From: Bacilli bacterium
GTDB lineage: Bacteria; Bacillota_I; Bacilli_A; RFN20; CAG-826
Reading direction: 5' to 3'
Assembly (NCBI GenBank): GCA_017626815.1
Contig: JAGAHY010000063.1
Span: forward strand, 1 to 60,574
DNA: 60,574 nucleotides
The notes under the pieces are model-generated. The model had not been told where the DNA came from. It made no database searches and saw only the letters and a program-made list of their open reading frames with translations. This document shows positions 6,052-56,797 of this stretch, in pieces (the first letter of the stretch is position 1; each line of letters begins with the position of its first letter). The translations under genes and the position numbers were made by a program.

Positions 6052-7362
6052 ATGGAACGCACATCTTCCCGATTGAAAGCCGGCGCCGCCATGTACAAAC
6101 AAACGTATATGGCCGTTACCGCCGAGGAAAGCAAGAAACTGATTCCCATCGAATACCCCAATAAGGTCACCAAATCGTTTTTCGTCGGCATCAAAAAGAG
6201 CCAAACCAAATGCGATGCCATCATCAAGGAAGTGACTTTTTTCCGGAAAGTCGACGGCTATAAGAACGTCAATAACAAGAAATACCGCATCTATTCCGCC
6301 GTCCAGACCAAGGAGAGGGAGATATTGATTCCTTTTTTCGCGACCGGCGCCTTCTTCCGCAGTCTCCCCAATCACCCTAATCCCACGTTGGCCGAGAACG
6401 CTTTGGCCATCGTCTCTTGTTTCGATGACCCTTTCCTTTATCCCCTTTACGCGCAGAAGAAATTCTTAGAACTCATCCATGAAGCGCGCATCAAGGAAAT
6501 CCGCAGCAACGCCGATGAGACGGCCAAAACCGATGCGGCCTTGGTGGAAAAGCTGCAAAGCGAATCCGCCAACAACACCCTCCTCATCCAAGAATACGAA
6601 AAGCAGTGGGACGTCTACCTCGAAAAGCAGTTCCGGGACATCGGCAAATTCGTCGATTATGGCTTTTTGCCCCATAAGAGGCTCAAAACCGTCTTAAGCT
6701 TTGGCCTATACCGTCCCTCTAACATCGCCAAAGGAAGTAGCCTCAAAGCCTATAAGAAGCAATTGAAGCTCGATGAAATCGATGGCCTCCTTTACCAAGC
6801 CATCCTCGACCATCACTGGTATAGCGATGAGCTTTGCCGCCAACGCCACGTCCAAGAACGCAACCTCGCCAAGCAAAAATACGACTTTGACCAAGAGCAG
6901 GCCCAATACGCCTTCGACTGTGCCAATCTTGGCGACCGTCTCAAAGACCCTAAGCCCAACGAGGATGTCGCGCCGCCAGAATTCCCTTACGACAAAGCCG
7001 AATATGAATTCGAGCTTCCCGAAAACCTCGTCGAGGAACAAGAAGGCATCGATTTCCTTCCCTTTGAGGACCCCAGTTTCTTCCAATACGAGGGGCTTTC
7101 GGTCGTCGGCATCGCCCTCATCCAGAACCTCGATGAACGATCTTATTGCATTGGCATCAGTTTCGACCTCGGCCTATCGATGCACAAAATCTTCGATAAA
7201 AACGGCTCTTTTGTGGAGCAAGGCCTAAGTTTGCAGCTCCGTAAAGCGGGTGGTTTATCCCATTTCCGCCTCGCGGTGAAGCCTTGCTATAGCAAAGAAG
7301 AACTCTACGATTCCTATTGCCGATTGCATAAAGCCTACCATGCGCGGTACATCACCTTATGA
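6052..7362 (+). CDS. Hypothetical protein with central helical/coiled-coil region and degenerate GIY-YIG-like C-terminal domain
   Basis: 436-aa ORF 8 nt after the helicase stop, overlapping the truB start (ATGA); C-terminus VGIALIQNLDERSYCIGISFDL...FRLAVKPCYSKEEL. Confidence 0.6.
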   Translation: MERTSSRLKAGAAMYKQTYMAVTAEESKKLIPIEYPNKVTKSFFVGIKKSQTKCDAIIKEVTFFRKVDGYKNVNNKKYRIYSAVQTKEREILIPFFATGAFFRSLPNHPNPTLAENALAIVSCFDDPFLYPLYAQKKFLELIHEARIKEIRSNADETAKTDAALVEKLQSESANNTLLIQEYEKQWDVYLEKQFRDIGKFVDYGFLPHKRLKTVLSFGLYRPSNIAKGSSLKAYKKQLKLDEIDGLLYQAILDHHWYSDELCRQRHVQERNLAKQKYDFDQEQAQYAFDCANLGDRLKDPKPNEDVAPPEFPYDKAEYEFELPENLVEEQEGIDFLPFEDPSFFQYEGLSVVGIALIQNLDERSYCIGISFDLGLSMHKIFDKNGSFVEQGLSLQLRKAGGLSHFRLAVKPCYSKEELYDSYCRLHKAYHARYITL

Positions 7363-18262: not shown

Positions 18263-21200
18263 TTACGCTGAGGGCTCGTCTAATTCGAAAAGCGATCCTT
18301 GGACGTAGCCGGTTTCGATGTCGGGGATGGCTTTGACCACGCATTCGAATAAGGCGATGATCAGCTGATAATCTTTCACTTGGCTGTTAGCAATGCGGAT
18401 GAGTTTGACCCCATAGTTGGCGCAGATATTCTCCTTGAGGCGGTCGTTTTTGGCGCTTTGCTTGGACCCGATATGCTCGCCGCCGTCGATTTCAAAGGCG
18501 ACGATGGTGCGGTAACGCCGTTTGACCATCCCTTCCGAAACTTGGATGATGACGTCGAATTCCTTTTTGCCGGTGAGTTGGAGGTCCGCCATCGCCAAAT
18601 TGGGGATGGCCTTCTTCATGGGGACGTTGCGTTCCACGCGCATGCGCTGTTTCCTTTTATTGAAATAAGGCGCGATGGTCTCGAAGAATTCTTTCTCGGA
18701 CTCGGAATCGTTGGAATAATTGGAGAAGGAGCGGTCGGTGATCGCGGGAACGATGGACTCTCCATTGGAATAGACATAGTCGGAAAGGGATTTGATGTCG
18801 TTATTTTCTTTGCCGCTAAGAAGGTTGATGGCCTCTTTGTCCCCAACGAAGACGAAACGTTCCTTCGCCCTAGTCACGGCGACATTGATGAGCTCGTGGT
18901 TGTTCTTAATCCAATCCATGGTCTTGCTGCCGGTGCGTGGGGACAATGCGGCGGAGAGAATAATAGTCGATTTCTCCGAGCCTTGGAGCATGTGGACGGT
19001 GCCCGCTTTGACCCCTTCGATTCCTTTGGCGCGAAGTAAGTCGTTGATGAGGTTGGCCTGGTTGACGAAAGGCGTGATGATGCCGACGTCCTCATAATGG
19101 TTCTTGGCGATGAGATTGACGATTCCCTCCGCTTCCTCGATGGAGGAATTGCGCTTGGTTTGGTGACGGATGTTCTTAACGTCGCAGTACACCAGTTTGC
19201 CTGGCGTGGCGTTTTCTAACTTCAATTGCCCTTGGTAGAAGCGGTCGTTGGAGAAACCGGCGATCTTTTTGCCGCACCGATAATGGTAGGAAAGCAAGAT
19301 GGACTTGGAATTCTCGTCTTTGCGCTGCATGGCCGAGAGAATGGAGTTGCTCATGTAGTCATAATCATCGCTGACCGCGTATTTGCCGCGGAGGCGTTCG
19401 TTGACCGCCGGCTCGATGACGGTGACGGGCTGAAGCTGGTTGACATCGCCGACAAGAAGCAAGGCTTTGGCGCGGATGACGGGGGTGAGGGAGGTGGCGA
19501 CGTTACATTGTCCCGCCTCATCCATGATGCAGAGATCGAAGTGGGGCTTGGGGGTGGCTAAGCGGTCGCTAGAAAGGTTCGTGGTGGCGATTAACGGGTA
19601 AATTTCTAAGAATTTACGCAGGTTTTCGGGGTCTTTGAGATAACGGTTTAAGCGCGAGGAAGCTTCGGCGAGGTCCTTGGTGAGGATGATGGAACGTAAC
19701 TCTTCGTTGACCGGGGAGAGCAATTTCTTCAGGCAGAGGACGCCCGAATAGAACATGTAATTATGGAAAGAGTCGCTGTCTTTGGCGGAGATGACGTAAT
19801 TCCCGATCATCTCGTTGCGGATTTTGGGAATGGCGGATAAGCGGGCGGACAAGATGGCCTTCTGCTTTTGGATTTCCTTGGCCATGGCGTCGTTTTTGGC
19901 GAGGGTTTCGATTTTGCTGAGCTTATCGAGGCGTTCTTTGACGTCGATGCGCTGCTCAAATTGAACCAAAAGGTCGCGAAGCTCGGAAAAACTCGATAGC
20001 GCGCCTTCTTTGCTGCGAAGCGTGGAGACTTCGTTGGCCTTAAGTTTTTCGTAGTCTTCGGCGCGGGAAAGATCCTCGCGGAGGGTGAGGATGGCTTTGA
20101 TGGTCTCTTGGCTGTTCCCCAACCGCAAAAAGGGGAGGCGGACGCTGACTGGCTTGCCTTGGTAGGTCCTGGAAAAGGTGGATCGCATCATTCTGGCGGC
20201 GATATCGTCGATGGGGTGGTTGTTATTGGAGCAGATCAGGACCTTTTTGGCGTTAGCGTAGGCGGAGAGGAGGACATTGAAAATGGTCTCCGTCTTGCCA
20301 GTCCCCGGCGGCCCTTGGACGTAGGTGACGGGGCTTACCATGGCGTTATAGACGACGCGCATTTGGTCGATGTTGACTTTGCTTTTGTCAAAGACGACGA
20401 CGCTGGCGTCTTTTTTAGGGCTGGCGATGGCGCGGTTGCGACCGAAGAAAGCCTTGATGGGCGTCTGCAGTTTCCCTTCTTTTTCTAATTCGGCGATGGA
20501 TTCGAACGTGGCGTCGACGTTATTGGAGAGCGCGCGTTCGATGAGGAAGATACTTGGCCTGGTGTTGACCATTTCGCCATGGCTGAAATTCTCCTCGATC
20601 ATGCGGATGAGGGCTTGCTTGGCTTCGTCGCTGCCGTTATAAGAGACGCAGAATTCCCTTTGGTCCATCTCCAAATACGACGACAGCGAGACTTTCTTGT
20701 CCTCGATGAGGAAAGAGGGGTTGATGGAGACGTCTTTCTCCACGCTTAGGGCTTTGGTGGCGAAGTTGAGGTTCAACTTATAGTAGGCGACCACATATTG
20801 CTTGCCGTTGATGTCGATGGAGAACGAATTGATGGCCATGTCCACGTAGCGGTAGTGGAATTCGGCTTCCGCCCTGGAACGTTTGAATAGGCGTTCCAAA
20901 ATCAGCTCGAAATCCTCGTCCGACAAGGTGATGGAGCGGTTCTTTTTGAGCTCGCGGATGTCGATCCCATCGAGCATCAACGTGTCTTTGATGTAGGGGT
21001 CGTTATCCATTTTGTAGCAATCGGAAAGATAGCCGAGGATATTGTTGTCGAAGGCTTCGGCTTCGAGGTAACTAAGCAACGCCTCATCTTTTTCGATGCG
21101 GCGAAGAAGCGAAGCGTCGCTAAGGTAAAAGCTTTGCTCGATGACCCTCGCGGAGAGGATGCCTTCGATGCGGATTTGGATGTCGCGGTCTTTTTTGAGG

Positions 21201-21379
21201 ATGTGCTGTTTCTTGAAGCAATTGAAAATGTCGCAGGATATCCGCCCGGACTTGATATCGATGTCCTTGATGCCGATGAAATAATCCGTGCGTTCTTGCT
21301 TTTGGTTGACGTAGTCGATGTCCAACCATTTGTTTTCGTTGACAGCGCGGTATATAGCCTGCTTGACGCTGAGCTTCAT
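18263..21379 (-). CDS. SF1 (DNA2/NAM7-like) helicase with N-terminal WYL-like domain and C-terminal DUF2726/Vsr-like nuclease
   Basis: AVNENKWLDIDYVN...IRIEGILSA (WYL-like); QGPPGTGKT; DEAGQ; GDVNQL; HYRC; HMLQGSEK; NVAVTRAK; FDVII...FEIDGGEH...DRLK...LIRI. Confidence 0.85.
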   Translation of the reverse strand: MKLSVKQAIYRAVNENKWLDIDYVNQKQERTDYFIGIKDIDIKSGRISCDIFNCFKKQHILKKDRDIQIRIEGILSARVIEQSFYLSDASLLRRIEKDEALLSYLEAEAFDNNILGYLSDCYKMDNDPYIKDTLMLDGIDIRELKKNRSITLSDEDFELILERLFKRSRAEAEFHYRYVDMAINSFSIDINGKQYVVAYYKLNLNFATKALSVEKDVSINPSFLIEDKKVSLSSYLEMDQREFCVSYNGSDEAKQALIRMIEENFSHGEMVNTRPSIFLIERALSNNVDATFESIAELEKEGKLQTPIKAFFGRNRAIASPKKDASVVVFDKSKVNIDQMRVVYNAMVSPVTYVQGPPGTGKTETIFNVLLSAYANAKKVLICSNNNHPIDDIAARMMRSTFSRTYQGKPVSVRLPFLRLGNSQETIKAILTLREDLSRAEDYEKLKANEVSTLRSKEGALSSFSELRDLLVQFEQRIDVKERLDKLSKIETLAKNDAMAKEIQKQKAILSARLSAIPKIRNEMIGNYVISAKDSDSFHNYMFYSGVLCLKKLLSPVNEELRSIILTKDLAEASSRLNRYLKDPENLRKFLEIYPLIATTNLSSDRLATPKPHFDLCIMDEAGQCNVATSLTPVIRAKALLLVGDVNQLQPVTVIEPAVNERLRGKYAVSDDYDYMSNSILSAMQRKDENSKSILLSYHYRCGKKIAGFSNDRFYQGQLKLENATPGKLVYCDVKNIRHQTKRNSSIEEAEGIVNLIAKNHYEDVGIITPFVNQANLINDLLRAKGIEGVKAGTVHMLQGSEKSTIILSAALSPRTGSKTMDWIKNNHELINVAVTRAKERFVFVGDKEAINLLSGKENNDIKSLSDYVYSNGESIVPAITDRSFSNYSNDSESEKEFFETIAPYFNKRKQRMRVERNVPMKKAIPNLAMADLQLTGKKEFDVIIQVSEGMVKRRYRTIVAFEIDGGEHIGSKQSAKNDRLKENICANYGVKLIRIANSQVKDYQLIIALFECVVKAIPDIETGYVQGSLFELDEPSA

Positions 21380-23973: not shown

Positions 23974-24007
23974 AAGCCTAGGTAAGCTCGTTCTTGCCTA
24001 GGCTTTT
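23974..24007 (+). terminator. Hairpin after pnp
   Basis: AAGCCTAGGTAAG/CTTGCCTAGGCTT 13-bp stem. Confidence 0.65.
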
Positions 24008-24062
24008 CATACTCTTGATAAGCAGTAAAAATTCCTTTACTATCTTTACAAAGGAGAAAAAC

Positions 24063-24320
24063 ATGATTGAAACAACAACGATTTCATCGAAAGGACAGGT
24101 TACTATTCCTGCTTCTTTTCGGGATAAATTAGGTTTATCCGCAGGCTCAAAAGTCGCGTTTATTGATGGTGAAGACGGGAATGTTTACGTCATGAATGCG
24201 TCTATTCTTTCCTTGAAACGGCTTCAAGACATCTTTCAAAAGGTGGCTGATGAAAAGCCTTTTGAGAATGAAGAGCAAGCCATGGCGTTTGCTATCGATA
24301 CGAGAAAGGGGCGCAAATAA
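24063..24320 (+). CDS. AbrB/MazE/SpoVT family antitoxin
   Basis: ISSKGQVTIPASFRDKLGL; AAGGAG SD. Confidence 0.88.
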   Translation: MIETTTISSKGQVTIPASFRDKLGLSAGSKVAFIDGEDGNVYVMNASILSLKRLQDIFQKVADEKPFENEEQAMAFAIDTRKGRK

Positions 24321-37525: not shown

Positions 37526-38338
37526 GTGGTAAGTTTTCTGAAGTACGCACGCATCGGCATCATCTGCATCTGGAGGGTAATCTTCGATTATTTCACCTGG
37601 ATTTTGCCTTATTCCAGACATCCGGAAAAATACCCGTTGGAGAAGCGCTACCGCAAAGCCCGCGGCCTGATTCTCTATTTGCTGCGCCATTACCGTTTTG
37701 AGCCAAGGCTAATCAACCCCGAAATTCTGGCCACCGATAAACCCGTGGTCTACGTGGCCAACCACCTTTCCGCGCTCGACCCGTTGATGCTCATTGCCTT
37801 ATCGCCGCGCCCGGTTTCCTTCATCGCCAAGAAAGAAGCGAAGAAAATCCCCGCCGCGGGGCGTCTCATCACCGCGATCAATGGCCTTTTCCTCGACCGC
37901 GATGACCCCTTCCAAGCCGTGAAAGTGTTCCGCCAAGCGGTCAAAAACATGGAAGAGACGGGCATTTCCTACGGCATCTTCCCCGAAGGCACGCGCAACA
38001 AAGACCCCTATAGCGCAAGGACCCTCGATTTCCATCCAGGCGCCTTAAAACTCGCCTACAAAGCCAAATGCCCGATCCGCCTCTATGCCCAATTCGGCAG
38101 TTTCCACGCCATGGATAACGTCGCGGGTAGAAGTCATCTTTGGACGATCCGCGGCGTCAAATCCATCGAATATGACGAATATCAGGACGTGAAGTCGGTG
38201 CTTTTGGCGACCCACCTTCGTTCCCAAATCGAAGAATATCTGCCTTCCCTCGCCCAAGAGGACAAGAAATATTACGACACGAAGCAACAGAAGCATCGGC
38301 CTTCCAAGTGGCAGGAAAAGTTACCCAAGACGGAGTAA
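37526..38338 (+). CDS. plsC: 1-acyl-sn-glycerol-3-phosphate acyltransferase
   Basis: NHLSALD, FIAKKE, FLDR, FPEGTR. Confidence 0.9.
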   Translation: MVSFLKYARIGIICIWRVIFDYFTWILPYSRHPEKYPLEKRYRKARGLILYLLRHYRFEPRLINPEILATDKPVVYVANHLSALDPLMLIALSPRPVSFIAKKEAKKIPAAGRLITAINGLFLDRDDPFQAVKVFRQAVKNMEETGISYGIFPEGTRNKDPYSARTLDFHPGALKLAYKAKCPIRLYAQFGSFHAMDNVAGRSHLWTIRGVKSIEYDEYQDVKSVLLATHLRSQIEEYLPSLAQEDKKYYDTKQQKHRPSKWQEKLPKTE

Positions 38339-38342
38339 GAGC

Positions 38343-38759
38343 ATGAGAGACGTCCGCGAAGAAACCCCCAATAAAGGCGAGTCGTTATTTAAGACGCTCG
38401 CAGTCGCCATGATCATCGCCGCCGTGATGTCCTTCGTGGCCATGTTTTTCCCGTTACGTAACCTCGCCCCGGAAGGCGCGGGGGCCCCATATTACCTGCC
38501 TTATGCCTTGCCTTATGGCATCGTCAATTTGATTATCGCGGGATTAGGCGTGTTCTTCACCACCAACGCGAAAGAGAAACCAGGGCTTTATTTCCCTGGC
38601 TTCATCATCGGCATCGTGGCCGGTGGCTTATTGACCTTAGAGGCCCTGCCCATCGGCATTTTTCTCCATAACGTCGAATTCTGCATCTCGGTCGCGGTGA
38701 TCGGCGCCTGCGTGATCGCCATCGCCATCACCGGCCTAAAAGCCCTTAAAGGCGACTAA
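38343..38759 (+). CDS. Small 4-TM membrane protein
   Basis: Four hydrophobic segments; 4 nt after plsC. Confidence 0.7.
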   Translation: MRDVREETPNKGESLFKTLAVAMIIAAVMSFVAMFFPLRNLAPEGAGAPYYLPYALPYGIVNLIIAGLGVFFTTNAKEKPGLYFPGFIIGIVAGGLLTLEALPIGIFLHNVEFCISVAVIGACVIAIAITGLKALKGD

Positions 38760-40036
38760 TAACGCCGTCTTAATCCCTTGGGGTAGTGGTTCTTCGCGGT
38801 TCCCTTGACGAGCTTAACGTAACCTAAGGGGATCCCTAGATAGGAAACCACCGCGTAACCGTCTTCCCCTTGGAGAGGGAATGTCTCGCCCGCAAGATAA
38901 CGCAGGGCGTTTTCTTTTTCTAGGGGGATGGAGGCTTTGGCAAAGCTCGCAAGGGCATGGTCAGGCTGGAAGGGGGTCTTTTCTTCGCCGATGCGGACTC
39001 CATAACGAAGCAAGGAAAGCTTTGGGGTTTTCATGGCTTCGGGAAGCGCGTAGGCGCTATCTTGATGGGAAAGGTAATCATAGCCTTCTAGGCCGTATTC
39101 AAAGGCCGGTTTCTGCAATGTTTTTGGCAGTTGATGTATCTTTTCCTGCTTATGCGCCACCTTATCGCCTTTATGTCTTAATAGGCATAAAAACTGTCCT
39201 TCGCCCGCGTAACGATGCGGGAACAGATGGATGCCCTGCGGCAAATCGGGGTGGTGGTAAAAGGAGGGGTCATCGGGTAAAAAGACAGCTTCAAAGTCTT
39301 CATGACGCTTCAAGAAGGAAAGGATGATTTCTTCATCTTCCTCATAGGAGAAGGAGCAGGTGGAATACATGATGCGGCCGCCCGAAACCAACATTTTCGC
39401 CGCGGATTCTAAAAGGGACTTTTGGATGGATTGCGTCTTTAAGACTTTTTCATACGTCCAATCGTCAAATAGGCGCCTATCTTTGCGGAACATCGCCGAG
39501 CCCGAGCAGGGGGCATCGAGCAAAATCGCGTCAAAATAGTCTTCGTAATTATCCTCAATCCCGACGAAATCCCCGGAAGTCACGACGACGTTTCCTAAGC
39601 CTAAACGTTCGACGTTGCCGGAATTCTCTTTGCTGCGGGGGTAGGAGATGTCGTTGGATAAAATGGTGCCGTTATTTCCTAAAAGCAGGCTTAAGACGCT
39701 GGTTTTGCCTCCAGGGGCGGCACACATATCCAAAATCCGTTCGCCTTTTTGGGGAGAAAGGAAATAAGGGGGCAACATGCTTGCGGCGTTCATGATATAA
39801 AAGGCGCCTAAATTAAATAGCATGCTTTTCCCAAGGGGATATTCCTCTTCGTCGTAATAGAAGGCGTTTTCGATGAAAGGGTGGGGTTTTAGATGCGGGT
39901 AAAGCGAAAGGAGGGTCTCCTTATTTACCTTATTATTAAGGTATAGGGAATGGATGGCTTTGCCTTGCTGGGCGAGGCGAAGTTCCTGGATTTCTTTTTC
40001 AGGATAATATGGGGTTAAGGAAGCGTAAAAATCCAT
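38756..40036 (-). CDS. rsmF: RsmF/NOL1/NOP2 RNA m5C methyltransferase
   Basis: LDMCAAPGGKT, DAPCSGS, YSTCS, KNHYPKGLR C-terminus. Confidence 0.88.
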   Translation of the reverse strand: MDFYASLTPYYPEKEIQELRLAQQGKAIHSLYLNNKVNKETLLSLYPHLKPHPFIENAFYYDEEEYPLGKSMLFNLGAFYIMNAASMLPPYFLSPQKGERILDMCAAPGGKTSVLSLLLGNNGTILSNDISYPRSKENSGNVERLGLGNVVVTSGDFVGIEDNYEDYFDAILLDAPCSGSAMFRKDRRLFDDWTYEKVLKTQSIQKSLLESAAKMLVSGGRIMYSTCSFSYEEDEEIILSFLKRHEDFEAVFLPDDPSFYHHPDLPQGIHLFPHRYAGEGQFLCLLRHKGDKVAHKQEKIHQLPKTLQKPAFEYGLEGYDYLSHQDSAYALPEAMKTPKLSLLRYGVRIGEEKTPFQPDHALASFAKASIPLEKENALRYLAGETFPLQGEDGYAVVSYLGIPLGYVKLVKGTAKNHYPKGLRRRY

Positions 40037-40074
40037 CGCTTTATCGTAGGGAAATTTGACGTTATAGGCAAGAA

Positions 40075-40185
40075 AGAAAATGGTGGCGGGATAGGGAAAC
40101 TACGTCGCTTGCGCCGGATAAAACCTCGTCGATTTTTCATAAAGAATCGATGCTAGGCCTTAACCAAGCCCCGAAATCCAAAAAA
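40075..40185. repeat. ~110-bp direct repeat, copy 1
   Basis: Aligns to 42550-42659 with 9 differences counted by eye; 36-bp identical core ATAGGGAAACTACGTCGCTTGCGCCGGATAAAACCT. Confidence 0.95.
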
Positions 40186-40261
40186 AAGGTCAAAATTTGC
40201 ACAGTGTTGGTGAAAGCCTAGATTTTTCCGCGCGTTTTTGACATGAACTTGCGTACAACCT

Positions 40262-41626
40262 TTATTCCGCCAACGTAAAGATATAGTTGTCGGAAAAACG
40301 CCCTATTAACTTTTCGGTGTTTTCAAAGGTTTCCTTGAATTCGTCGTCCAATTTGCCTGAAATGTACTTATCTCTTAGCTGACCTTTATCGACTAAAACC
40401 CATTTCAATTCTTTGAAGGAATATTTTGCAAACGCGATCCACTGGGGGTAGTTGATGGCCATCGGGTTCTTAGTAAAGTAAACCTTGCCTGCATTGATTG
40501 CTGTTGCGGCCGTATGCGCGATAAATAGCATCGACGCGAGTTTCGGGTGTTTCTCGCGATTCAAAGAGAACGGAATGGACTCTTTTATTGAGAAACCTGC
40601 GCGGATTCTTCTAATGGCGTAGCAAATCCGGACGATGACTTCCGTTAAAAGCACGGGGATGGACGCGGAGCAGAAATGGATGAAGTCATATCCTTCGTAA
40701 TACATGCCTTGGACGATTTCGGCGATGGTTTGCTCTTCTTCGCCGATACTTCCAAACTGCAACAAGTTGAATAAGCCCATCAAAGGCGCCGGAAGTCCCA
40801 TGGGGGTGGTAATGTCGGATTTGAAGTGGATAAACTGCTTCGCGATTGCGGAAAAGATGTTGGTTTCTTTTCGATCCGCGTAATTGCTCATGATTTGGGA
40901 GACAATCTTGCCCTTCTTATCAATGGTCGTCATCCGGCCCGTCATGATATCAAAAACACCGACAATAAAACCGAGCAGCGGATCATGGCCGAGCGAAAGC
41001 ATTCTATGGTAGTAGGCCGAAAGTCCTTCTACATGCACGGTCGTATACCGATTATCTTGGGCGTCGAAAGATACTTTGCTAATACTGGAATTGGCAAGCT
41101 TTTCCATTTCTTCGGGTGGGAATGCTTTGTCAAAGCGTTGACGGATAACGTTAGATAGCGGGCCCGCCTTTAATCCATCGGGTGTGGCGTGAGGGATGCC
41201 GACCATTAGGATATCGATCGCACCGGACAAGATTCCTGCGATGGCACAGATGGAATAATCGATTAAATCCATGTGGTGCATAGCGTTGAAGTCACTCGCC
41301 AATGCCCTTATGTAGTCTTCATTCTCCTGGAGTTCTTTTTCGGAGAAGAAATCCGTTAGTTCTTTATATTGAGCGTTGTCTGCGGACGCCTTCGTAAGCA
41401 ATTGCTCCCATGTAGGGATAACGATTTCCGTCTTTCTGGAAGACACTGAAGGCTGCGCCTTTTGCGGTGGCAAAGCAATGCCTAAAGATTTCAACAACGC
41501 TTCGCTTTCGGCAATTGCCTTTTCGTCCACCTTGGGAATTTCAATTTCCGAAAGGCTTTTCTCTTGATGCGATAAAACGGTGTTTAGTTCAATCTCTTCC
41601 TGAGTGTAACTATATTTCTTTTTCAT
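40262..41626 (-). CDS. Hypothetical protein with several hydrophobic segments (cassette gene B)
   Basis: 454 aa; HRMLSLGHDPLLGFIVGVFDIMTG, HFKSDITTPMGLPAP; AT-richer codon use; overlaps the gene A stop. Confidence 0.8.
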   Translation of the reverse strand: MKKKYSYTQEEIELNTVLSHQEKSLSEIEIPKVDEKAIAESEALLKSLGIALPPQKAQPSVSSRKTEIVIPTWEQLLTKASADNAQYKELTDFFSEKELQENEDYIRALASDFNAMHHMDLIDYSICAIAGILSGAIDILMVGIPHATPDGLKAGPLSNVIRQRFDKAFPPEEMEKLANSSISKVSFDAQDNRYTTVHVEGLSAYYHRMLSLGHDPLLGFIVGVFDIMTGRMTTIDKKGKIVSQIMSNYADRKETNIFSAIAKQFIHFKSDITTPMGLPAPLMGLFNLLQFGSIGEEEQTIAEIVQGMYYEGYDFIHFCSASIPVLLTEVIVRICYAIRRIRAGFSIKESIPFSLNREKHPKLASMLFIAHTAATAINAGKVYFTKNPMAINYPQWIAFAKYSFKELKWVLVDKGQLRDKYISGKLDDEFKETFENTEKLIGRFSDNYIFTLAE

Positions 41627-42201
41627 TGCGCTTGGATGCCAAGGTCATGTTGCAAATCCTTGAGGGCTTGGGTCAATAGAATATTCAAGCCTTGAAGATA
41701 GTCGAGCCTTTCCTTTGTGGCATTGAGCTCGTCTTTTAAAGCCTCGATTATGGCCTCGTGCTTACGGACGACTTCTTGATAGAGCCGTTCTTTTTCTTTC
41801 TTTAACTGCTTGCTTTTCAGATGGACGGTTAAACCAACACCGCCTGCGGCTAAAGCGGCCACTGGCGCAGCGAGAACAAAGATGCCTGCGACCATGCCGC
41901 CTCCGACAAGTGTGCCGGCGGCCGCTAGTCCAGAGGTGATTCCTACGGCGCTAAGGCCGACGGTTCCTAGCCCATATAACGCGGCGAAAGAGACTGCACC
42001 GCCTATACCCGCACCAACAGCGCCGGCAATGACTTCGCGCATGGGGCTATCTTTTGCCGTTCGCATTTTATCGGCTGTTGCAAACGTCACTTCATTCACA
42101 ACGTCGACGACGGGCTGAAGAGCGGCTGTGTCTTTAAATTTCATGTCCCTCTTCCTCGGCGCTTTATTTTTCACAACGTGAGTCGTTGCTTCATTTCCCA
42201 T
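41623..42201 (-). CDS. Gly/Ala-rich hydrophobic hairpin (glycine-zipper-like) plus coiled-coil protein (cassette gene A)
   Basis: AGAVGAGIGG...GITSGLAAAG...GGGMVAG followed by an amphipathic helix; start chosen at ATG 42201 (AGGGG SD), alternative start 42270. Confidence 0.8.
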   Translation of the reverse strand: MGNEATTHVVKNKAPRKRDMKFKDTAALQPVVDVVNEVTFATADKMRTAKDSPMREVIAGAVGAGIGGAVSFAALYGLGTVGLSAVGITSGLAAAGTLVGGGMVAGIFVLAAPVAALAAGGVGLTVHLKSKQLKKEKERLYQEVVRKHEAIIEALKDELNATKERLDYLQGLNILLTQALKDLQHDLGIQAQ

Positions 42202-42549
42202 GTTTTGAACCCCTGTTTTTTCTAATGATACTTTTATCTCATCCGTTCGGAAACAATTTATAGCCTTCATTCCTTCCTATGAAGAACGTAACTACCCGCC
42301 CGCTGCCTGAATAATCTCTTTTAGATAAGGCTCTTTTTGCCACACCATGACACCGAATGGGCAAATTATGTACATCGGTGTGACGCAATTGGGCTCGCAA
42401 GCGCTTGCTCGGATTGGTAAAACCATGCATGGAAAAAGGCCTCCTTCGAACGGAAGATGGTAGTTGTGGAAAACGACCATATTATATTCGATGGGAAGCC
42501 ACTTTTTAGTTCCTAGCAAGCCAATTCCTAAAAAGCCTAGAAAGTCAAT

Positions 42550-42659
42550 AGAAAATGGTGACGGAATAGGGAAACTACGTCGCTTGCGCCGGATAAAACC
42601 TTGTCGTTTTTCACAAAGAATCGATGCTAGGCCATAGCAAAGCCCTGAAATCCAAAAAA
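42550..42659. repeat. ~110-bp direct repeat, copy 2
   Basis: Matches 40075-40185. Confidence 0.95.
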
Positions 42660-42760
42660 TCCAAAATGGCTTCGCGAAATCATCGTTCCTGGAACGCTAA
42701 GCGAAAAACGGACGCAAACACATCGAAACCTTGCCATTATCATGGTATGATTCTTCCCGT

Positions 42761-44065
42761 ATGAGAATGGTAGATATAATCGAACGTAAACGCGATGGCC
42801 ACGCGCTTACGGAAGAAGAGATTCGTTTCTTTGTCAAAGGCTACTCCTGCGGGGAAATCCCCGATTATCAGGCCTCGGCTTTGACGATGGCCATTTATTT
42901 CCGCGGCATGAATAAGGAAGAGACCGCGATTTTGACCGACGCGATGATGCATTCGGGCGAAACCGTGGACCTTTCCGTCATCCCCGGCATCAAAGTCGAT
43001 AAACATAGCACGGGCGGCGTCGGCGATAAGACCTCCCTCGTGGTCGGGCCTTTGGTGGCCGCCTGCGGCGCCAAGATCGCCAAGATGTCGGGCAGGGGCT
43101 TAGGCCATACCGGCGGCACGCTAGACAAGATGGAGTCGATCCCGGGCATGAACGTCTTCGTGGATAAGGAAGACTTCATCCGTCAGTTAAACGACATCGG
43201 CATCGCCATCATCGGCCAGACGGCCAAAATCGACCCCGCGGACAAGAAGCTTTACGCCCTCCGCGACGTCACCGCGACCGTCGAGTCCATCCCCTTAATC
43301 GCCTCGAGCATCATGTCGAAGAAGCTCGCCTCGGGCAGCGACGCCATTTTGCTCGACGTCAAATTCGGCACCGGCGCCTTCATGAAAACCCTGGAAGACG
43401 CGCGTAAATTAGCCCGCGCGATGGTCGAAATCGGCGATTCGCTCGGCCGCGATACGCGCGCTGTCTTAACCGACATGAACCAGCCTTTAGGCAAGGCCGT
43501 CGGCAATTCCCTCGAAGTCATCGAGGCCATCAACACCTTGCAAGGCAAAGGCCCCAGGGATTTGGTGGATCTCGCGATCGATTCGGGCGCGATCATCTTG
43601 GAGCAAGCCCATTTGGTCCAAACTTACGAAGAAGGCTGCGAACGCATCATGAAAGCCATCGATGACCGTTCGGGCTTCCGTAAGCTCGTCGAACTCGTCA
43701 AGGCCCAAGGCGGCGATCCTTCCTATATCGAAAACCCCGATAAGTTCGAAAAAGCCAAATACATCATCCCCGTGGTCTCTAGCCGCGCTGGCTATGTGCA
43801 CCGCATCGATTCCCTTTCCATCGGACTTGCCGCCATGAAATTCGGCGCCGGACGCGCGACCATGGACGATGTCATCGACATGTCCGCGGGCATTTACTTG
43901 GAAAAGAAAGTCGGGGACAAAGTCGAATCCGGCGATGTCCTTTGCTATTGCCATACCAACAAAACGGACATCAAAGACATCCTAAAGGAAGTGGAAGAGG
44001 CGTTCCTCGTCGACGAGAAGAAAGTCGTCCTCGAGCCCATCGTCTACGATTATATCCACGCTTGA
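42761..44065 (+). CDS. pdp: Pyrimidine-nucleoside phosphorylase
   Basis: DKHSTGGVGDK, KMSGRGLGHTGGTLDK, SIMSKK. Confidence 0.95.
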   Translation: MRMVDIIERKRDGHALTEEEIRFFVKGYSCGEIPDYQASALTMAIYFRGMNKEETAILTDAMMHSGETVDLSVIPGIKVDKHSTGGVGDKTSLVVGPLVAACGAKIAKMSGRGLGHTGGTLDKMESIPGMNVFVDKEDFIRQLNDIGIAIIGQTAKIDPADKKLYALRDVTATVESIPLIASSIMSKKLASGSDAILLDVKFGTGAFMKTLEDARKLARAMVEIGDSLGRDTRAVLTDMNQPLGKAVGNSLEVIEAINTLQGKGPRDLVDLAIDSGAIILEQAHLVQTYEEGCERIMKAIDDRSGFRKLVELVKAQGGDPSYIENPDKFEKAKYIIPVVSSRAGYVHRIDSLSIGLAAMKFGAGRATMDDVIDMSAGIYLEKKVGDKVESGDVLCYCHTNKTDIKDILKEVEEAFLVDEKKVVLEPIVYDYIHA

Positions 44066-44067
44066 TT

Positions 44068-44520
44068 ATGAGAGTCGTCTTGCAAGTCGTCACGGACGCT
44101 TCCGTGACCATCAATCAGGAAAAAGTCGCCCACATCGATAAGGGCTTCCTTTGCTTCGTCGGCTTCACCGAAGGCGATGACCTTAACCTCGCCAAGAAAA
44201 TGGCCGATAAAATCTGCAAGCTGCGGGTTTTCCCCGATGAAAACGGCAAAACCAACCGCAGCCTCAACGATGTCGGCGGGAAGATCTTAAGCGTCTCCCA
44301 GTTCACCCTCTACGCCTCGGTGAAAGAAGGCAATCGCCCGAGTTTTACGAATTGCCTCAACAAAGATATCGCCGCATGCCTCTATGAGGATTTCTTCACT
44401 TACCTCAAGTCGGTCGCCCCTGGTGCGGAATCCGGCGTCTTCCACGCGGATATGGACGTGGGTCTTGTCAACAACGGGCCCTTTACCTTAATCTTAGATT
44501 CCAAGGAGCTTTTCCAATGA
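44068..44520 (+). CDS. dtd: D-aminoacyl-tRNA deacylase
   Basis: MRVVLQ, SQFTL, GNRPSF, NNGPFT. Confidence 0.95.
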   Translation: MRVVLQVVTDASVTINQEKVAHIDKGFLCFVGFTEGDDLNLAKKMADKICKLRVFPDENGKTNRSLNDVGGKILSVSQFTLYASVKEGNRPSFTNCLNKDIAACLYEDFFTYLKSVAPGAESGVFHADMDVGLVNNGPFTLILDSKELFQ

Positions 44521-45656
44521 AAGTCTTGGTCGGGCTTAGCGGTGGCGTCGATAGCGCCATCGCCGCGTATCTACTGAAGAAGCAGGGCTATGAAGTCAGC
44601 GGTGGCTTCATGCGCAACTGGGACGCCTTGGCCAATAACGACTATCTGGGCAATCCCACCATCGGCAACAGCCAATGCCCCCAGGAAGTCGACTACTATG
44701 ACGCGGTCGAAGTCGCGAAGAAGCTCGATATTCCCTTGCTTCGCGCCGATTTCGTGAAGGAATATTGGGATAACGTCTTCTCCTTTTTCTTAAGCGAATA
44801 CGAAAAAGGCAGGACCCCAAATCCCGATGTGTTCTGCAACAAATACATCAAATTCGATTCCTTCTACGAATTCGCTTTGTCCCAGGGATTCACCAAAATC
44901 GCCATGGGCCATTACGCTAAACTGGGAAAAGACCAGTGGGGGAACCCACGATTATTCAAAGCCGCCGACCGTAACAAAGACCAGACTTATTTCCTTTGTC
45001 AGATCTCGGATAAGCAAGTCGCGAGTTGCTTTTTCCCGCTCGGTGACATCGATAAACCCGAAGTCCGTCGCCTCGCCCACGAGTTAAACCTCAACTCCGT
45101 CATGGACAAGAAAGATTCCACCGGGGTGTGCTTCATCGGCGAACGTCACTTCAAGCAGTTCCTCCAAAACTACATGCCCGCGAAGCCTGGCAAAGTCGTG
45201 CTGCTTCCCAAAAACAAGGAAATCGGCACCCATAGCGGCGTCTATTTCTATACGATTGGCCAACATAAAGGCCTGGGCATCGGTGGCGTCAAAGGGGAAG
45301 AAGAAGGGGGCTACTTCGTGGTCAAGAAAGACGTGAAGAACAATATCCTCTACGTCTGCCAGCTTAAAGACCGTTACCTGTTGTCCTCGACGTCCTGCGA
45401 TATCTCCCATCTGAATCTTCAAGGTCCCGTCGAAGGAAACGATATCGAAGTCTCCGTCAAATTCCGTTACCGTCAAGCCGACCAGCCCGCCATCCTCCAT
45501 ATGGAGGAAGGGGGCAACGCCAAACTCGAATATTCCTTCCATCCGGTGGAGGCGGTCACGCCAGGGCAGATCGCGGCCATCTACCAAGGGGATATGCTCC
45601 TTGGCGGGGGCATCATCGAGGCCACTTACCGCGATGGGGGGCGTACCGACATCTAA
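44517..45656 (+). CDS. mnmA: tRNA 2-thiouridylase
   Basis: SGGVDS, TPNPDVFCN, KDQTYFL, DSTGVCFIG, TPGQ. Confidence 0.97.
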   Translation: MKVLVGLSGGVDSAIAAYLLKKQGYEVSGGFMRNWDALANNDYLGNPTIGNSQCPQEVDYYDAVEVAKKLDIPLLRADFVKEYWDNVFSFFLSEYEKGRTPNPDVFCNKYIKFDSFYEFALSQGFTKIAMGHYAKLGKDQWGNPRLFKAADRNKDQTYFLCQISDKQVASCFFPLGDIDKPEVRRLAHELNLNSVMDKKDSTGVCFIGERHFKQFLQNYMPAKPGKVVLLPKNKEIGTHSGVYFYTIGQHKGLGIGGVKGEEEGGYFVVKKDVKNNILYVCQLKDRYLLSSTSCDISHLNLQGPVEGNDIEVSVKFRYRQADQPAILHMEEGGNAKLEYSFHPVEAVTPGQIAAIYQGDMLLGGGIIEATYRDGGRTDI

Positions 45657-54233: not shown

Positions 54234-54773
54234 ATGAAAACCATTCTCATCATCTGCATCGTCGCGGCCATCGGCTTGGTCGGCTTTGGCGCGGTTCATT
54301 ACATGACCACCAACGTGGGCAATAGCCCAACCTCGCAAGTCGACTCCGTCGCCGCCGACGCCTTAAGCGTCACCATCTCGGGAGAAGTCAACTATCCTGG
54401 CGCCTATGTCGTCGCCAAAGGGAGCAAGCTCCTCGACCTCATCAACGCCGCCGGCGGCACCAACTCCAACGCCGACTCCCTAGCCTTCAACACCGATTAC
54501 GCCATCGAGAACAAGGGCACCTATTTCATCGCGCCGCTCTACGATAATTCCAATACCTGCAGCGCCTCGCCCATCGTCAAGACCAACATCAACATGGATG
54601 ACGTCGAAACCATGCAATCCATCGCCGGTTTCACCAAAACCGTAGCCAACGCCATCGTCTCTTACCGCGCCTCCGCGCCATTTAAAGCCATCGAGGAAAT
54701 CAAGAACGTCTCCGGCGTCGGAGCGGCGACTTATGAAAAGGTGAAGGCCAAGATCGTCCTTCGCGCCGCCTAA
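54234..54773 (+). CDS. comEA: Competence DNA receptor ComEA (SLBB + HhH)
   Basis: N-terminal TM, ISGEVNYPGAY...AAGG, NIN...FKAIEEIKNVSGVG. Confidence 0.9.
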   Translation: MKTILIICIVAAIGLVGFGAVHYMTTNVGNSPTSQVDSVAADALSVTISGEVNYPGAYVVAKGSKLLDLINAAGGTNSNADSLAFNTDYAIENKGTYFIAPLYDNSNTCSASPIVKTNINMDDVETMQSIAGFTKTVANAIVSYRASAPFKAIEEIKNVSGVGAATYEKVKAKIVLRAA

Positions 54774-54775
54774 GC

Positions 54776-56797
54776 GTGAACGCCCTTTTTCTCTTAATCG
54801 GCTCCATCCTTGGGCTCTACCTCGGCCATAGCGATGATCCCGTTCGCCTGGTGATTGTCGCCTTGGCCCTGGTGGTGGCCTTCTTTTGGGCCAAAAGCAG
54901 GGGAGCGTTAGTCTATTTGCTTATCCCTACCTTTATTTGCTTTGGCCTATCCGCGGCTTTGTTTTGGATTCCTTACCCGGAGGGGACGAGCGAATTTGAC
55001 GCGGTCGTGATCCGCCAGAGCGACAACTATGTTCTCGTGCAGCATTTCTTCCGACGTTATTATGTCTCCTGCAAAGGTAACCATTATGAAGTGGGGGATA
55101 TCCTCCATCTTCGAGGCAAAGTGACGCCTTTTTTGTCCACGACTTATGAGTCGCGCTTCGACTTTGGGGCCTACCTTAAGGATTATGGGGTCCGTTATGA
55201 ACTTGCTTCCCCAAAAATAGCCACCAATTTCCAGACGCCTTTTCGCTTACGCGCCTTTGAGCTAGGCTTCCTCAACCATTTTAGTCCAAGCGGCAAAGCC
55301 ATGCTGGACTCGTTGCTTTTTGGGAAGAAGGATTATTCTTCCTCCTTGATTGAGAAAGCCTCCTCGATGAACCTGATCTTCGTCCTTTCCTCTTCGGGGA
55401 TGCTTTATACCTTATTCTTAGGGGTGGTGAAGAAAGTCCTTTGCTGGAAAATCAAAGAGGGAACCGCGGATGTGGTCGTGGTCTTCCTTGGGTTGTTCTT
55501 CCTGCCGTTTGGGTTTAAGAAAATCGGCATCTTACGCGCCTTTTTGGTGCGCGCCATCAAACTTTTCAATATCCACATCCTCAAGAAGGAACTTTCCTAT
55601 TTATCTCGGTTAGGAATCGCGGGCCTCGTCATTTTGCTATTGGACATCCATAACGCCTTTAACACCGGCTTCCTCATCGGCATGGGCATCTGCTTATTGA
55701 TGGTCGTGGTCCGTCCTTATATCGAGCATAAGAAAAAAGCGGTGGAGAAAGTGCGTTCCTCCTTGGTCATCCGCGTCTTTTTGATCCCGCTTACCTTAAC
55801 CGGGGGAGGCGTCCACCTGTTTGGGATGCTGTTCATGTTCATGCTACTGCCGTTAAGTGGGTTTATCGTGACGTTAGGCTATCTTTCCTTAGTAACCGTC
55901 CCCTTTACGGGCCTATTCAATGGGCTAGGGGATTTCATGGTTTATTTATTAACCCGATTTGAGGCGGTGGACCTAGCGTTCCCTTTGCCCGCGCTTAGCG
56001 TGGCGGGGGTAGGGATATTCTACGCGGTGCTTTTCGTTTCTTTGTTCTTACATGAAAGCGCGATGCACCTTAGCCGCAACATCCTCGTCTTTTCCTCGAT
56101 TGGCTTATATGTCTGCTCCCTTGTCCCCATCGTCCCTTATCTCACGAATTCAGTCAGTTTCATCAACGTTGGGCAGGGGGATTGCGCCCTAATCCAAAGT
56201 GGCAACGTCAACGTCCTTATCGACACCGGAGGGGTGACGTCTTTTGATATCGCGGAAGAATGTTTGCTTCCTTATTTCCGGAAGCGGCGCATCTACCATC
56301 TAGACGCGATCATCGCCTCCCATCAAGACTATGACCATATGGGTGGGGTGGAGACGTTACTAAAGAAATTCAAGGTCGGGACGTATATCAAAGACCCGAC
56401 CCCCTTTCCGGTGAGTTTCGGTAATCTCACCTTCTATAATTACAATAACTACGATGCGACCGAGGAAAACGATAAATCCCTGGTCTTATCCCTAGATTTC
56501 ATGGGCAAAAACTGGATTTTCACCGGGGATGCCCCAATCTGGATCGAGAAGAAAATCATCGCCGATTACCCGCATCTAGACTGCGATATCCTCAAAGTCG
56601 GCCACCATGGCAGCGACACCTCCACCTGCGCGGAATGGCTCGACGCGATCACCCCGCGAACCGCCATCATCTCCTGCGGGGCGAAGAATAAATACGGCCA
56701 TCCGATTCCTTCCGTCCTCAAGCTCTTGGAAGAACGTCATATCGAGATTCGGCGCACGGACTTAGAAGGGACGATCGTGTATTCAAGCCTGAGGTGA
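54776..56797 (+). CDS. comEC: Competence channel ComEC/Rec2
   Basis: Multi-TM competence domain; MBL domain NVGQGD, SHQDYDHMGG, TGD, KVGHHGS, YGHP. Confidence 0.92.
   Translation: MNALFLLIGSILGLYLGHSDDPVRLVIVALALVVAFFWAKSRGALVYLLIPTFICFGLSAALFWIPYPEGTSEFDAVVIRQSDNYVLVQHFFRRYYVSCKGNHYEVGDILHLRGKVTPFLSTTYESRFDFGAYLKDYGVRYELASPKIATNFQTPFRLRAFELGFLNHFSPSGKAMLDSLLFGKKDYSSSLIEKASSMNLIFVLSSSGMLYTLFLGVVKKVLCWKIKEGTADVVVVFLGLFFLPFGFKKIGILRAFLVRAIKLFNIHILKKELSYLSRLGIAGLVILLLDIHNAFNTGFLIGMGICLLMVVVRPYIEHKKKAVEKVRSSLVIRVFLIPLTLTGGGVHLFGMLFMFMLLPLSGFIVTLGYLSLVTVPFTGLFNGLGDFMVYLLTRFEAVDLAFPLPALSVAGVGIFYAVLFVSLFLHESAMHLSRNILVFSSIGLYVCSLVPIVPYLTNSVSFINVGQGDCALIQSGNVNVLIDTGGVTSFDIAEECLLPYFRKRRIYHLDAIIASHQDYDHMGGVETLLKKFKVGTYIKDPTPFPVSFGNLTFYNYNNYDATEENDKSLVLSLDFMGKNWIFTGDAPIWIEKKIIADYPHLDCDILKVGHHGSDTSTCAEWLDAITPRTAIISCGAKNKYGHPIPSVLKLLEERHIEIRRTDLEGTIVYSSLR

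Follow-up and report, generated by a model that had tools for sequence, protein, structure and literature searches.

What is a pair of genes for putative membrane proteins, framed by two long direct repeats, doing between two housekeeping genes, and by what route did it come to lie there? The question is raised by positions 40,075–42,659 of a 60,574-nt stretch of DNA from a Bacilli bacterium (assembly GCA_017626815.1, contig JAGAHY010000063.1), the whole of which was analysed and is referred to here as the window. The source organism is known from metagenomes only; its genome comprises 2,420,696 bases in 202 contigs and is about 91% complete. The two genes, gene A and gene B, lie between rsmF and pdp, and a preliminary description of the locus had taken them for a candidate undescribed membrane-acting system in what may be an exchangeable cassette slot. 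We propose that the 2.6-kb segment is probably a horizontally acquired, minimal Bunzi-type anti-phage operon, inserted in the short divergent rsmF–pdp intergenic region. The origin of the repeats is unsettled, and we would give about an even chance to the view that they are native intergenic DNA, duplicated by a homology-assisted, recombinase-independent insertion of the cassette. As a whole, the locus is an ordinary defence-gene insertion and not a new kind of element.

Bunzi is an anti-phage system made of BnzA and BnzB, which the accessible part of its original description reports as protective (Millman et al., bioRxiv 10.1101/2022.05.11.491447). Gene B of the window matches the PADLOC model of BnzB (PDLC03834) with an expectation value (E) of 1.3e-66 and 223.7 bits, its residues 17–435 aligning on profile positions 54–502 of 504, and is a full-length BnzB. 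The N-terminal ~115 residues are variable, the core (120–410) is highly conserved, and hydropathy places one strong hydrophobic helix at 118–150. At least 97% of 104 aligned gene B homologues retain the residues G213-H214-D215-P216 and H267/K269/D271; this alignment holds the window protein and 103 of 108 loci, five having been dropped for want of an uninterrupted alignment of at least 400 aa. Of 7,999 candidates scored, at least 2,642 are homologues at E ≤ 1e-5; the matches listed are 445–463 aa long, 61–78% identical and, where named, called ‘hypothetical protein’. Beyond PADLOC, Pfam, NCBIfam and PHROGs gave no meaningful family, a sequence profile search of the PDB gave no match at E ≤ 1, and the ESM Atlas returned unnamed ‘hypothetical protein’ clusters only. 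Longer fused forms (796–2270 aa) were sought and none appeared at E ≤ 1e-10, which is weak evidence.

Gene A matches the PADLOC model of BnzA (PDLC03833, E 2.5e-10) on profile positions 308–416 only, which is the predicted transmembrane part. Its product has about 76 residues, then a Gly/Ala-rich hydrophobic stretch (77–153) that contains the maximum Kyte-Doolittle score of 2.18 and is predicted to be transmembrane, then a charged helical tail. An AlphaFold2 model, with a mean predicted local distance difference test score (pLDDT) of 78.6, places helices at 48–66, 78–119 (78–89, 95–106 and 109–119), 127–180 and 186–210; with this model, Foldseek found no match at E ≤ 0.001 and VIA-align found generic helical matches only (best Z 7.3). 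The Pfam search revealed no TerB domain at E ≤ 0.1 and no other family at its cut-off, and NCBIfam and PHROGs gave nothing meaningful. Because homology to relatives begins near residue 27–39, the real start may be M24 or M43. A decayed longer N-terminus was sought upstream of 42270, where in-frame stop codons and no significant similarity were found. An exhaustive search of cluster representatives yielded 679 relatives at E ≤ 0.001, and the short form is the commonest among the best 150, with 54 of them 175–199 aa long. In longer relatives the A module forms the C-terminal end, preceded by ADP-ribosylglycohydrolase (two proteins), Hsp70-like (two) or ankyrin-repeat (one) parts. TerB was matched by none of the 18 relatives scanned, 13 of which have at least 280 aa, and the BnzA match of a relative, whether short or long, invariably lies at profile positions of about 270–424. 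Gene A is, on this evidence, a predicted BnzA membrane module, i.e. a glycine-zipper hydrophobic hairpin and a helical tail without TerB.

An A homologue sits just upstream of the B homologue in 79 of the 80 genome loci fetched, a co-occurrence that the preliminary description had suggested testing; the sole locus without A has only 392 nt of contig upstream. These 80 loci comprise 49 two-gene forms, 28 three-gene forms, two in which A is cut by the contig end and the one without A. The three-gene form carries, between A and B, an extra open reading frame (ORF) of ~100–130 aa (for example at 5651–5998 in locus L094 and at 6225–6572 in the phage record L139), which resembles, as a weak paralogue, the final membrane helix and the tail of A (35% over 84 aa, E 2e-6). 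All 12 B homologues that were taken from other loci and compared with the BnzB model match it, at E 1e-62 to 1e-67. Within the phylum this model matches 8 of 401 sampled genomes, six of them strongly, and the BnzA model matches 5 of 400, none at full length and only two (G000 and G278) on the membrane part. A variant order was found in genome G329 (locus L172, 1399–3959): a BnzB-like protein of 482 aa, which is the best match to the model (E 1.2e-108), comes first, and after it stands a protein of 369 aa in which a glycine-zipper membrane region lies between a coiled coil and a second coiled part, and which escapes the BnzA model. The constant theme is BnzB with a glycine-zipper membrane partner, to which varying domains are added.

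The pair is found in Bacillota, Actinomycetota, and Bacteroidota- and Chloroflexota-labelled genomes, many of them of gut or oral bacteria; the record titles of the 80 loci name Lachnospiraceae, Streptococcus, Enterococcus, Erysipelotrichaceae, Veillonella, Atopobiaceae, Flexilinea and some Bacteroides-labelled contigs of metagenome-assembled genomes (MAGs). When 12 of the loci were scanned with PADLOC (150 ORFs), seven had clear defence neighbours within 6 kb, a point that the preliminary description had also suggested testing, this figure being a plain count and not a statistical enrichment. The neighbours are Dsr1, AbiU, AbiEii with PDC-S01, two HEC-06/GmrSD-like genes, type I restriction–modification, Fic/SoFic/PDC-S04 and PDC-M14A. 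Matches to mad2 and mad3 near the pair were rejected as cross-matches of ABC-ATPases or methyltransferases. In addition, a copy from the same genus adjoins a GmrSD gene. Mobile DNA carries the pair as well. Two plasmid records of Limosilactobacillus mucosae have it next to an integrase and an IS256 transposase, and in an Acutalibacteraceae phage genome it lies, in the three-gene form, a few genes from an endolysin. It is also present in a Streptococcus suis phage record (MN270261.1, L170), with genes annotated as ESAT-6-like and Tet(M) on either side, neighbours that make this ‘phage’ record look like a composite mobile element. B homologues were further found on 26 IMG/VR loci.

How does this pair compare with the system as described? 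BnzA has been presented as having, besides a TerB domain, two predicted transmembrane helices and a domain that interacts with lipids (bioRxiv 10.1101/2022.05.11.491447), and ‘membrane surveillance’ has been proposed for Bunzi (bioRxiv 10.1101/2022.05.11.491447; 10.1101/2024.10.26.620412). Later papers, in their accessible parts, repeat the description without a mechanism (PMC10952713, 10.1101/2024.10.26.620412, 10.1101/2025.09.30.679545, PMC12926258); in the accessible literature we found nothing on a TerB-less form or on the mechanism of Bunzi, which is not proof of absence. The pair resembles Bunzi in being two adjacent co-directional genes, in the likeness of gene B to nearly the whole BnzB profile and of gene A to the transmembrane part of BnzA, and in that its homologues sit in defence islands and on mobile elements. 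It differs in that gene A has only those ~76 residues before the membrane region and no TerB, whereas the described BnzA, as far as the accessible sources go, has one, and in the three-gene form, with its A-tail paralogue between A and B, seen in 28 of 80 loci. Shango and Dionysus, which also contain TerB and are named with Bunzi as candidates for membrane surveillance in the accessible parts of the same reports (bioRxiv 10.1101/2022.05.11.491447; 10.1101/2025.09.30.679545), share only TerB with the canonical BnzA; here TerB is absent, and no PADLOC match to their components was obtained.

We therefore regard the pair, as far as homology can tell, as a minimal, TerB-less Bunzi-type pair and not as an undescribed system. 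Much of what the preliminary description had said about the genes holds: their coupling (a 4-nt overlap), the Gly/Ala-zipper hairpin with a helical tail in gene A (hydropathy and the AlphaFold2 model), and the 454-aa length and the GHDP and H267/K269/D271 motifs of gene B. Its statement that neither gene could be assigned to a named family is contradicted by the two PADLOC matches. Of the undescribed two-component membrane-acting system that it proposed, the two components, the association with the membrane and the anti-phage type are retained; ‘undescribed’ is not, gene B being a full-length BnzB and gene A a putative BnzA membrane module.

The second part of the question concerns the site. 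Of the 29 genus loci fetched through Pdp, 26 have rsmF and pdp side by side in divergent orientation, and five further genus genomes (G064, G061, G043, G070 and G057) also have them adjacent, which brings the total to 31 of 34. Therefore, the 2.6 kb is an insertion, and not the content of a general cassette slot. In the eight closest loci the two genes are adjacent without cargo in every case, across a gap of 38–155 bp. Three loci are exceptions. One (L025) has only 173 nt upstream of pdp and is uninformative. In a second (L007), the first ~35 residues of a divergent ORF look RsmF-like by eye, with no significant match. In the third (L008, 1–831; genome G016, 82% complete with 6% contamination), pdp is preceded by an unknown ORF in the same direction, which is cut by the contig start so that 276 aa are visible, and rsmF-like DNA lies on another G016 contig; this is either a rearrangement or an effect of binning or assembly, given the contamination.

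Evidence of acquisition from outside comes from the distribution of the cargo. Neither gene B nor the repeat was found in 40 relatives, and among 57 other genus genomes Bunzi-like DNA is present in only two (G072 and G042), both times at other sites and with B proteins 57% and 61% identical. In a tree from a quick search only, with an arbitrary root, the window B groups with two Acutalibacteraceae-labelled MAGs (Shimodaira–Hasegawa-like approximate likelihood ratio 99), apart from the G072 and G042 copies; the tree and the pattern of sites would fit at least three separate acquisitions in the genus. No other Bunzi-like locus has rsmF or pdp nearby, and DNA similarity to those loci ends inside the coding part, at 40336–42123. 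The genomes that represent the species of the genus are distant, with no more than 80% identity to the window in pdp DNA, and a search for conspecific metagenome contigs via RsmF returned only relatives of ≤45% identity. The insert, called ‘visibly AT-richer’ in the preliminary description, is indeed lower in G+C, though only modestly: about 46.5%, the genome having 49.6%, the window 53.0% and rsmF 48.8%.

The repeats are the most unusual feature of the insertion and are as first described. The repeat search gave two segments, 40075–40136/42550–42611 (94%) and 40133–40185/42607–42659 (91%), and global alignment of the 111- and 110-nt copies gave eight substitutions and one 1-nt indel, i.e. nine differences, with a longest identical run of 36 nt (40091–40126); these figures agree exactly with the earlier ones. 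Their position between divergent rsmF and pdp is borne out by Pfam for both flanks, and the reported lack of an integrase, transposase or tRNA nearby is upheld by the absence of any integrase, transposase or recombinase Pfam match among the 43 larger window ORFs scanned and of any tRNA in the whole 60.5-kb window. The genome search recovered the second copy at E 1.9e-39, far beyond chance, and no third copy in the 2,420,696 bases. When the seven non-coding pieces of the interval were all compared with the genome by short-word BLAST, no further match appeared; Rfam has no match for the repeat, and the exact 36-nt core was not found in metagenome and viral contig collections. Folded as single-stranded DNA on both strands, copy 1 scored z-values of −0.10 and 0.06 and copy 2 of 0.83 and 0.80; neither strand of either copy has a significant fold or an attC-like hairpin. 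A miniature inverted-repeat transposable element or insertion sequence was ruled out, the repeats being direct rather than inverted, limited to two genomic copies and unaccompanied by a transposase. A flanking direct repeat of at least 100 nt was found in only 1 of 72 other loci of the gene pair (in Streptococcus mitis, asymmetrically placed); the repeats therefore belong to this insertion and not to the gene pair.

Independent views of the locus were obtained by aligning Logan contigs of four public runs (X1, X5, X6 and X8) to 38500–44500. The contigs of X1, which may be the source sample (38500–40120, 40219–42595 and 42566–44500), break at the repeats, as is to be expected of a 31-mer graph. 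In X5, which is 98–99% identical to the window, contigs bridge rsmF to copy 1 (to 40136), gene A to copy 2 (42168–42611) and copy 2 to pdp (42584–43647). Thus, three of the four repeat junctions are seen independently, which bears on the concern that the repeats are an assembly artefact; among the contigs listed, none spans the fourth, from copy 1 to the cassette (40137–40218), and 40137–40182 is uncovered in both X1 and X5. Furthermore, of the nine positions that tell the two copies apart, two in X5 copy 2 (42561 A>G; an extra A after 42606) read as in copy 1, so that repeat alleles are shuffled among strains. The X6 flanks are about 95% identical to the window, differing by 4–6%, and its sole cassette contig (3458 nt) matches 40231–42394 at about 98% with unlike sequence on both sides, 1115 nt of it beyond 40231. 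A short rsmF-side contig of the same run ends 14 nt into copy 1 (to 40088), and its pdp-side contig starts inside copy 2 at 42608. The 98%-identical copy elsewhere suggests that the cassette core moved recently between contexts. In none of the four runs did we see a contig that joins across the cassette or a one-repeat allele, which is a weak negative since contigs drop rare variants.

These results bear on two further claims of the preliminary description. The exchangeable cassette slot is not supported, since 31 of 34 genus genomes have rsmF and pdp adjacent without cargo or repeat, the repeats have no attC fold and comparable repeats flank only one of the 72 other loci; relatives do carry empty alleles, but with neither a repeat copy nor other cargo. 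The deletion or circularisation between the copies found no excision joint or contig across the cassette to support it, and what survives of the idea is some mobility of the core, in the form of the 98% copy elsewhere. There is no sign of present-day excision driven by the repeats.

Integration of the Campbell type, by a single crossover, is known from suicide plasmids and from homology-facilitated recombination; it leaves an insert flanked by direct repeats of the homologous stretch. These repeats resemble each other as closely as donor and recipient did, and the process requires no dedicated recombinase. For the present locus, we envisage a single crossover through a roughly 92%-identical stretch on incoming DNA of a related strain; after the duplication, both flanking genes would keep their upstream DNA, and copy 1 may preserve that of rsmF. 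Several findings are consistent with a native repeat. The rsmF-side and pdp-side contigs of X6 both hold repeat ends, although its sole cassette contig lies elsewhere. The 8% divergence between the copies is of between-strain order, as judged by the 4–6% in the X6 flanks. In addition, the copy-1 states in X5 copy 2 and the lack of a recombinase nearby fit the same view. The present case differs from the Campbell type in that no donor arrangement or empty site was seen. Genes resembling comEA (HHH_3, SLBB) and comEC (Competence, Lactamase_B) lie at 54234–56797 (+) of the window, and DNA uptake by natural transformation may be a possible route for the insert.

Several observations weigh against the reading given here, as regards the repeats and the function of the pair. 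First, an ancestral gap with one repeat would measure 249 bp, above the gaps of all eight closest relatives, and no one-repeat empty allele was seen in relatives, metagenome contigs or the contigs of the four runs. Second, one more X5 contig matches the window from 40183 onward and is unlike it before, and in X8 a 221-nt contig holds only 42387–42549 and ends exactly at the repeat edge. The inner repeat edges thus behave as junctions, which would also fit a site-specific event. Third, only 109 of the 544 positions of the BnzA profile are covered by gene A, which lacks TerB, and automated callers that impose coverage limits might miss Bunzi at this locus. Fourth, the defence role of the short form is a candidate one, and a Bunzi homologue on a lactococcal plasmid gave no protection against the phages tested, according to the accessible part of that report (PMC11381338). 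Fifth, the pair has no defence neighbour in this window, where the nearest candidate, a PDC-S37 gene, is 34 kb away. Finally, the pore-forming role considered below for gene A draws on composition and on general knowledge of glycine zippers, and the AlphaFold2 model of gene B (from a 21-sequence alignment) is unreliable, with a mean pLDDT of 48.7 and a core (161–323) under 50, so that a sensor or enzyme role for gene B is a guess.

The junctions at 40183 and 42549 are one argument for a different origin of the repeats, namely as attL/attR scars of a small mobilisable cassette whose recombinase is encoded elsewhere, in which case the rsmF–pdp gap would be a reusable slot and a circle of ~2.47 kb could be excised. 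We consider this unlikely. It would explain why the cargo is exactly bracketed by direct repeats that share an identical core of 36 nt and why the core recurs at 98% identity in another context in X6, and the unknown co-directional ORF upstream of pdp in G016 suggests that the site is not wholly invariant. Yet the 60.5-kb window offers neither a recombination gene among its 43 scanned ORFs nor a tRNA target, the repeat is confined to two copies in this genome and to none in the 40 relatives, and its 36-nt core did not turn up in the metagenome or viral contig collections. The fold z-scores about 0 on both strands give no attC-type hairpin. Furthermore, the site is unoccupied in 31 of 34 genus genomes, whose closest members have gaps (38–155 bp) that leave no room for a 110-bp site; only one of 72 other pair loci has a repeat of similar length; and no contig joins across the cassette in the four runs, although this last point is weak because rare forms are invisible in contigs. 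The cassette boundary also varies by context (40231 and 42394 in X6, 40183 in X5), unlike one precise site. Integron cassettes bounded by attC, including clusters of attC sites lacking integron-integrases (CALIN arrays), share with this locus a promoter-poor cargo, direct repeats of ~60–140 nt and the lack of a recombinase inside the cassette; they differ from it in that here there is no attC-like hairpin, no intI or other tyrosine recombinase in 60 kb, and a single cassette with two repeat copies.

A little less probable still is the idea that both copies came with the insert, as terminal redundancy after illegitimate recombination of a piece a little over one unit in length from a circular or concatemeric element of ~2.47 kb, such as a small plasmid or an excised circle. 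A gap without either copy would measure 38 + 101 = 139 bp, inside the range of the eight closest relatives, the G+C content of the repeats (45.9% and 43.6%) is like that of the insert (46.6%), and the pair is known on plasmids and phages. Redundant ends should start out identical, however, and these differ by 8%, as against about 2% between cassette copies across contexts; moreover, the X6 cassette contig has unlike sequence where the left repeat should begin, and the X6 repeat ends are attached to rsmF-side and pdp-side contigs with the cassette elsewhere. Finally, that the pair is a non-defence membrane module on mobile DNA, be it a holin-like lysis or lysis-control pair, a toxin–antitoxin pair or an envelope-stress device, is very improbable: the endolysin a few genes from the three-gene form in the Acutalibacteraceae phage record, the weak match of gene A to the PHROG family ‘membrane protein, moron’ (E 0.022) and the inactive homologue in Lactococcus (PMC11381338, accessible part) are outweighed by a match over the full length to BnzB, which belongs to a system reported to be protective in the accessible part of its description, by the frequent defence-gene neighbours and by most copies being chromosomal and outside lysis cassettes.

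The whole locus is a mosaic, in which rsmF is followed by one repeat copy, 45 bp, the cassette core, 155 bp, the other repeat copy and then pdp (Table 1).

Table 1. Features of the rsmF–pdp interval and its flanks, in window coordinates
Feature	Position	Strand	Basis or remark
rsmF (16S rRNA m5C methyltransferase), left housekeeping flank	38756..40036	-	Pfam Methyltr_RsmB-F 6.8e-45, Methyltranf_PUA 1.6e-17
38-bp stretch from rsmF start to repeat copy 1	40037..40074	.	probably native rsmF-proximal intergenic DNA
Direct repeat copy 1, 111 nt	40075..40185	+	repeat search, global alignment
76-bp spacer from copy 1 to gene B stop	40186..40261	.	first 45 bp (40186-40230) outside the cassette core common to run X6
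Gene B, BnzB-family, 454 aa	40262..41626	-	PADLOC PDLC03834 E 1.3e-66
Gene A, short BnzA-like membrane protein, ORF of 215 aa	41623..42270	-	PADLOC PDLC03833 E 2.5e-10
Region upstream of gene A	42271..42549	-	42271-42394 in the cassette core common to X6; 42395-42549 a separate piece
Direct repeat copy 2, 110 nt	42550..42659	+	repeat search, global alignment
Promoter-like site for pdp, TCGAAA-17-TATGAT with upstream TG	42723..42751	+	9 nt before the conserved ATG at 42761
pdp (pyrimidine-nucleoside phosphorylase), right housekeeping flank	42761..44065	+	Pfam Glycos_transf_3 1.6e-47, PYNP_C 5.4e-22

On the left, rsmF lies downstream of gene A and gene B and on the same, minus strand. Since the three genes are co-stranded and the terminator scan called no terminator-like site in the spacer after gene B, read-through into rsmF is possible. 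The text near the rsmF start (...TATCGTA...) is similar in relatives, and the 38-bp stretch contains, by eye, a promoter-like TTGCCT-17-TACGAT on the minus strand that the consensus scan did not call. On the right, the pdp ORF runs from 42731 to 44065, and its start was revised from 42731 to 42761 because alignments with relatives begin at residues 9–11 of the long ORF; the revised start is the conserved MRMVD (ATGAGAATGG in relatives). An extended −10 box precedes ATGAGAATGG at the same place in relatives, according to a reading by eye. Upstream of gene A, a TATAAT box near 42482–42487 was also noted by eye, and a terminator-like hairpin occupies 42456–42440. The piece 42395–42549 occurs by itself in run X8. 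A 23-bit match to CRISPR-DR58 inside rsmF, from an Rfam scan of 38000–45000 (gathering score 38), was taken as chance.

A 58-nt non-coding motif at 42493–42550 (minus strand), just inside copy 2, occurs once in the window and nowhere else in its own genome. The closest relative, G061, has an 80% match (L140, 5179–5237) downstream of mnmA, in the gap where this gene and a 780-aa gene converge, and a 13-nt part of the motif is inverted in an unlike flank of the X6 cassette contig.

Farther away, the window encodes three other proteins of interest. The PDC-S37 candidate at 281–6043 (+) is a 1920-aa protein with DUF4011, AAA_11/AAA_12 helicase and REase_MTES_1575 domains, which matches PADLOC PDC-S37 almost end to end (E 6.4e-230) as well as Hhe and is likely a single-gene helicase–nuclease defence protein. 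An Upf1-like helicase of 1038 aa (AAA_11/AAA_12) at 18263–21379 (-) has partial PADLOC matches to MkoC (6.6e-54) and MkoA of Mokosh, and a small MazE/AbrB-type antitoxin-like protein (PF04014, 1.5e-09) is encoded at 23994–24320 (+).

How might so small a pair work? Glycine-zipper helices are known to pack into homo-oligomeric channels. Because gene A encodes little more than a glycine-zipper hairpin and a coiled tail and is translationally coupled to gene B, we favour an abortive-infection device that would act at the membrane. The gene A product would oligomerise through its glycine zippers and form a lesion or channel that breaches or depolarises the membrane. The gene B product, with its strong hydrophobic helix and conserved polar core (GHDP and H267/K269/D271), might sense infection and gate or activate the A protein. 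In the longer relatives, swappable N-terminal domains of A (ADP-ribosylglycohydrolase, Hsp70-like, ankyrin and, per the literature, TerB) could add sensing or control.

From here a broader proposition can be drawn, which we offer tentatively and hold to be rather doubtful as a whole: that the functional core of Bunzi is, instead of the TerB protein, a glycine-zipper membrane protein with BnzB, for which the N-termini of A serve as interchangeable sensors and which the window would carry in its bare form, and that this 2.2–2.4-kb core also moves without a recombinase, by homology-assisted insertion that leaves long imperfect repeats of the target. If true, small defence operons could land between housekeeping genes without mobile-element machinery.

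Bunzi is a validated defence system without a known mechanism and is described, in the accessible literature, through the TerB domain of BnzA. The relatives of the present pair point to a large, widely transferred branch of the family that would lack TerB altogether. Profile-based callers may accordingly under-count Bunzi, and experiments would be directed at the membrane module of A together with BnzB as the putative effector core. The repeat-flanked, recombinase-free insertion between two core genes provides a small, clean case in which to study how a lone defence operon is acquired.

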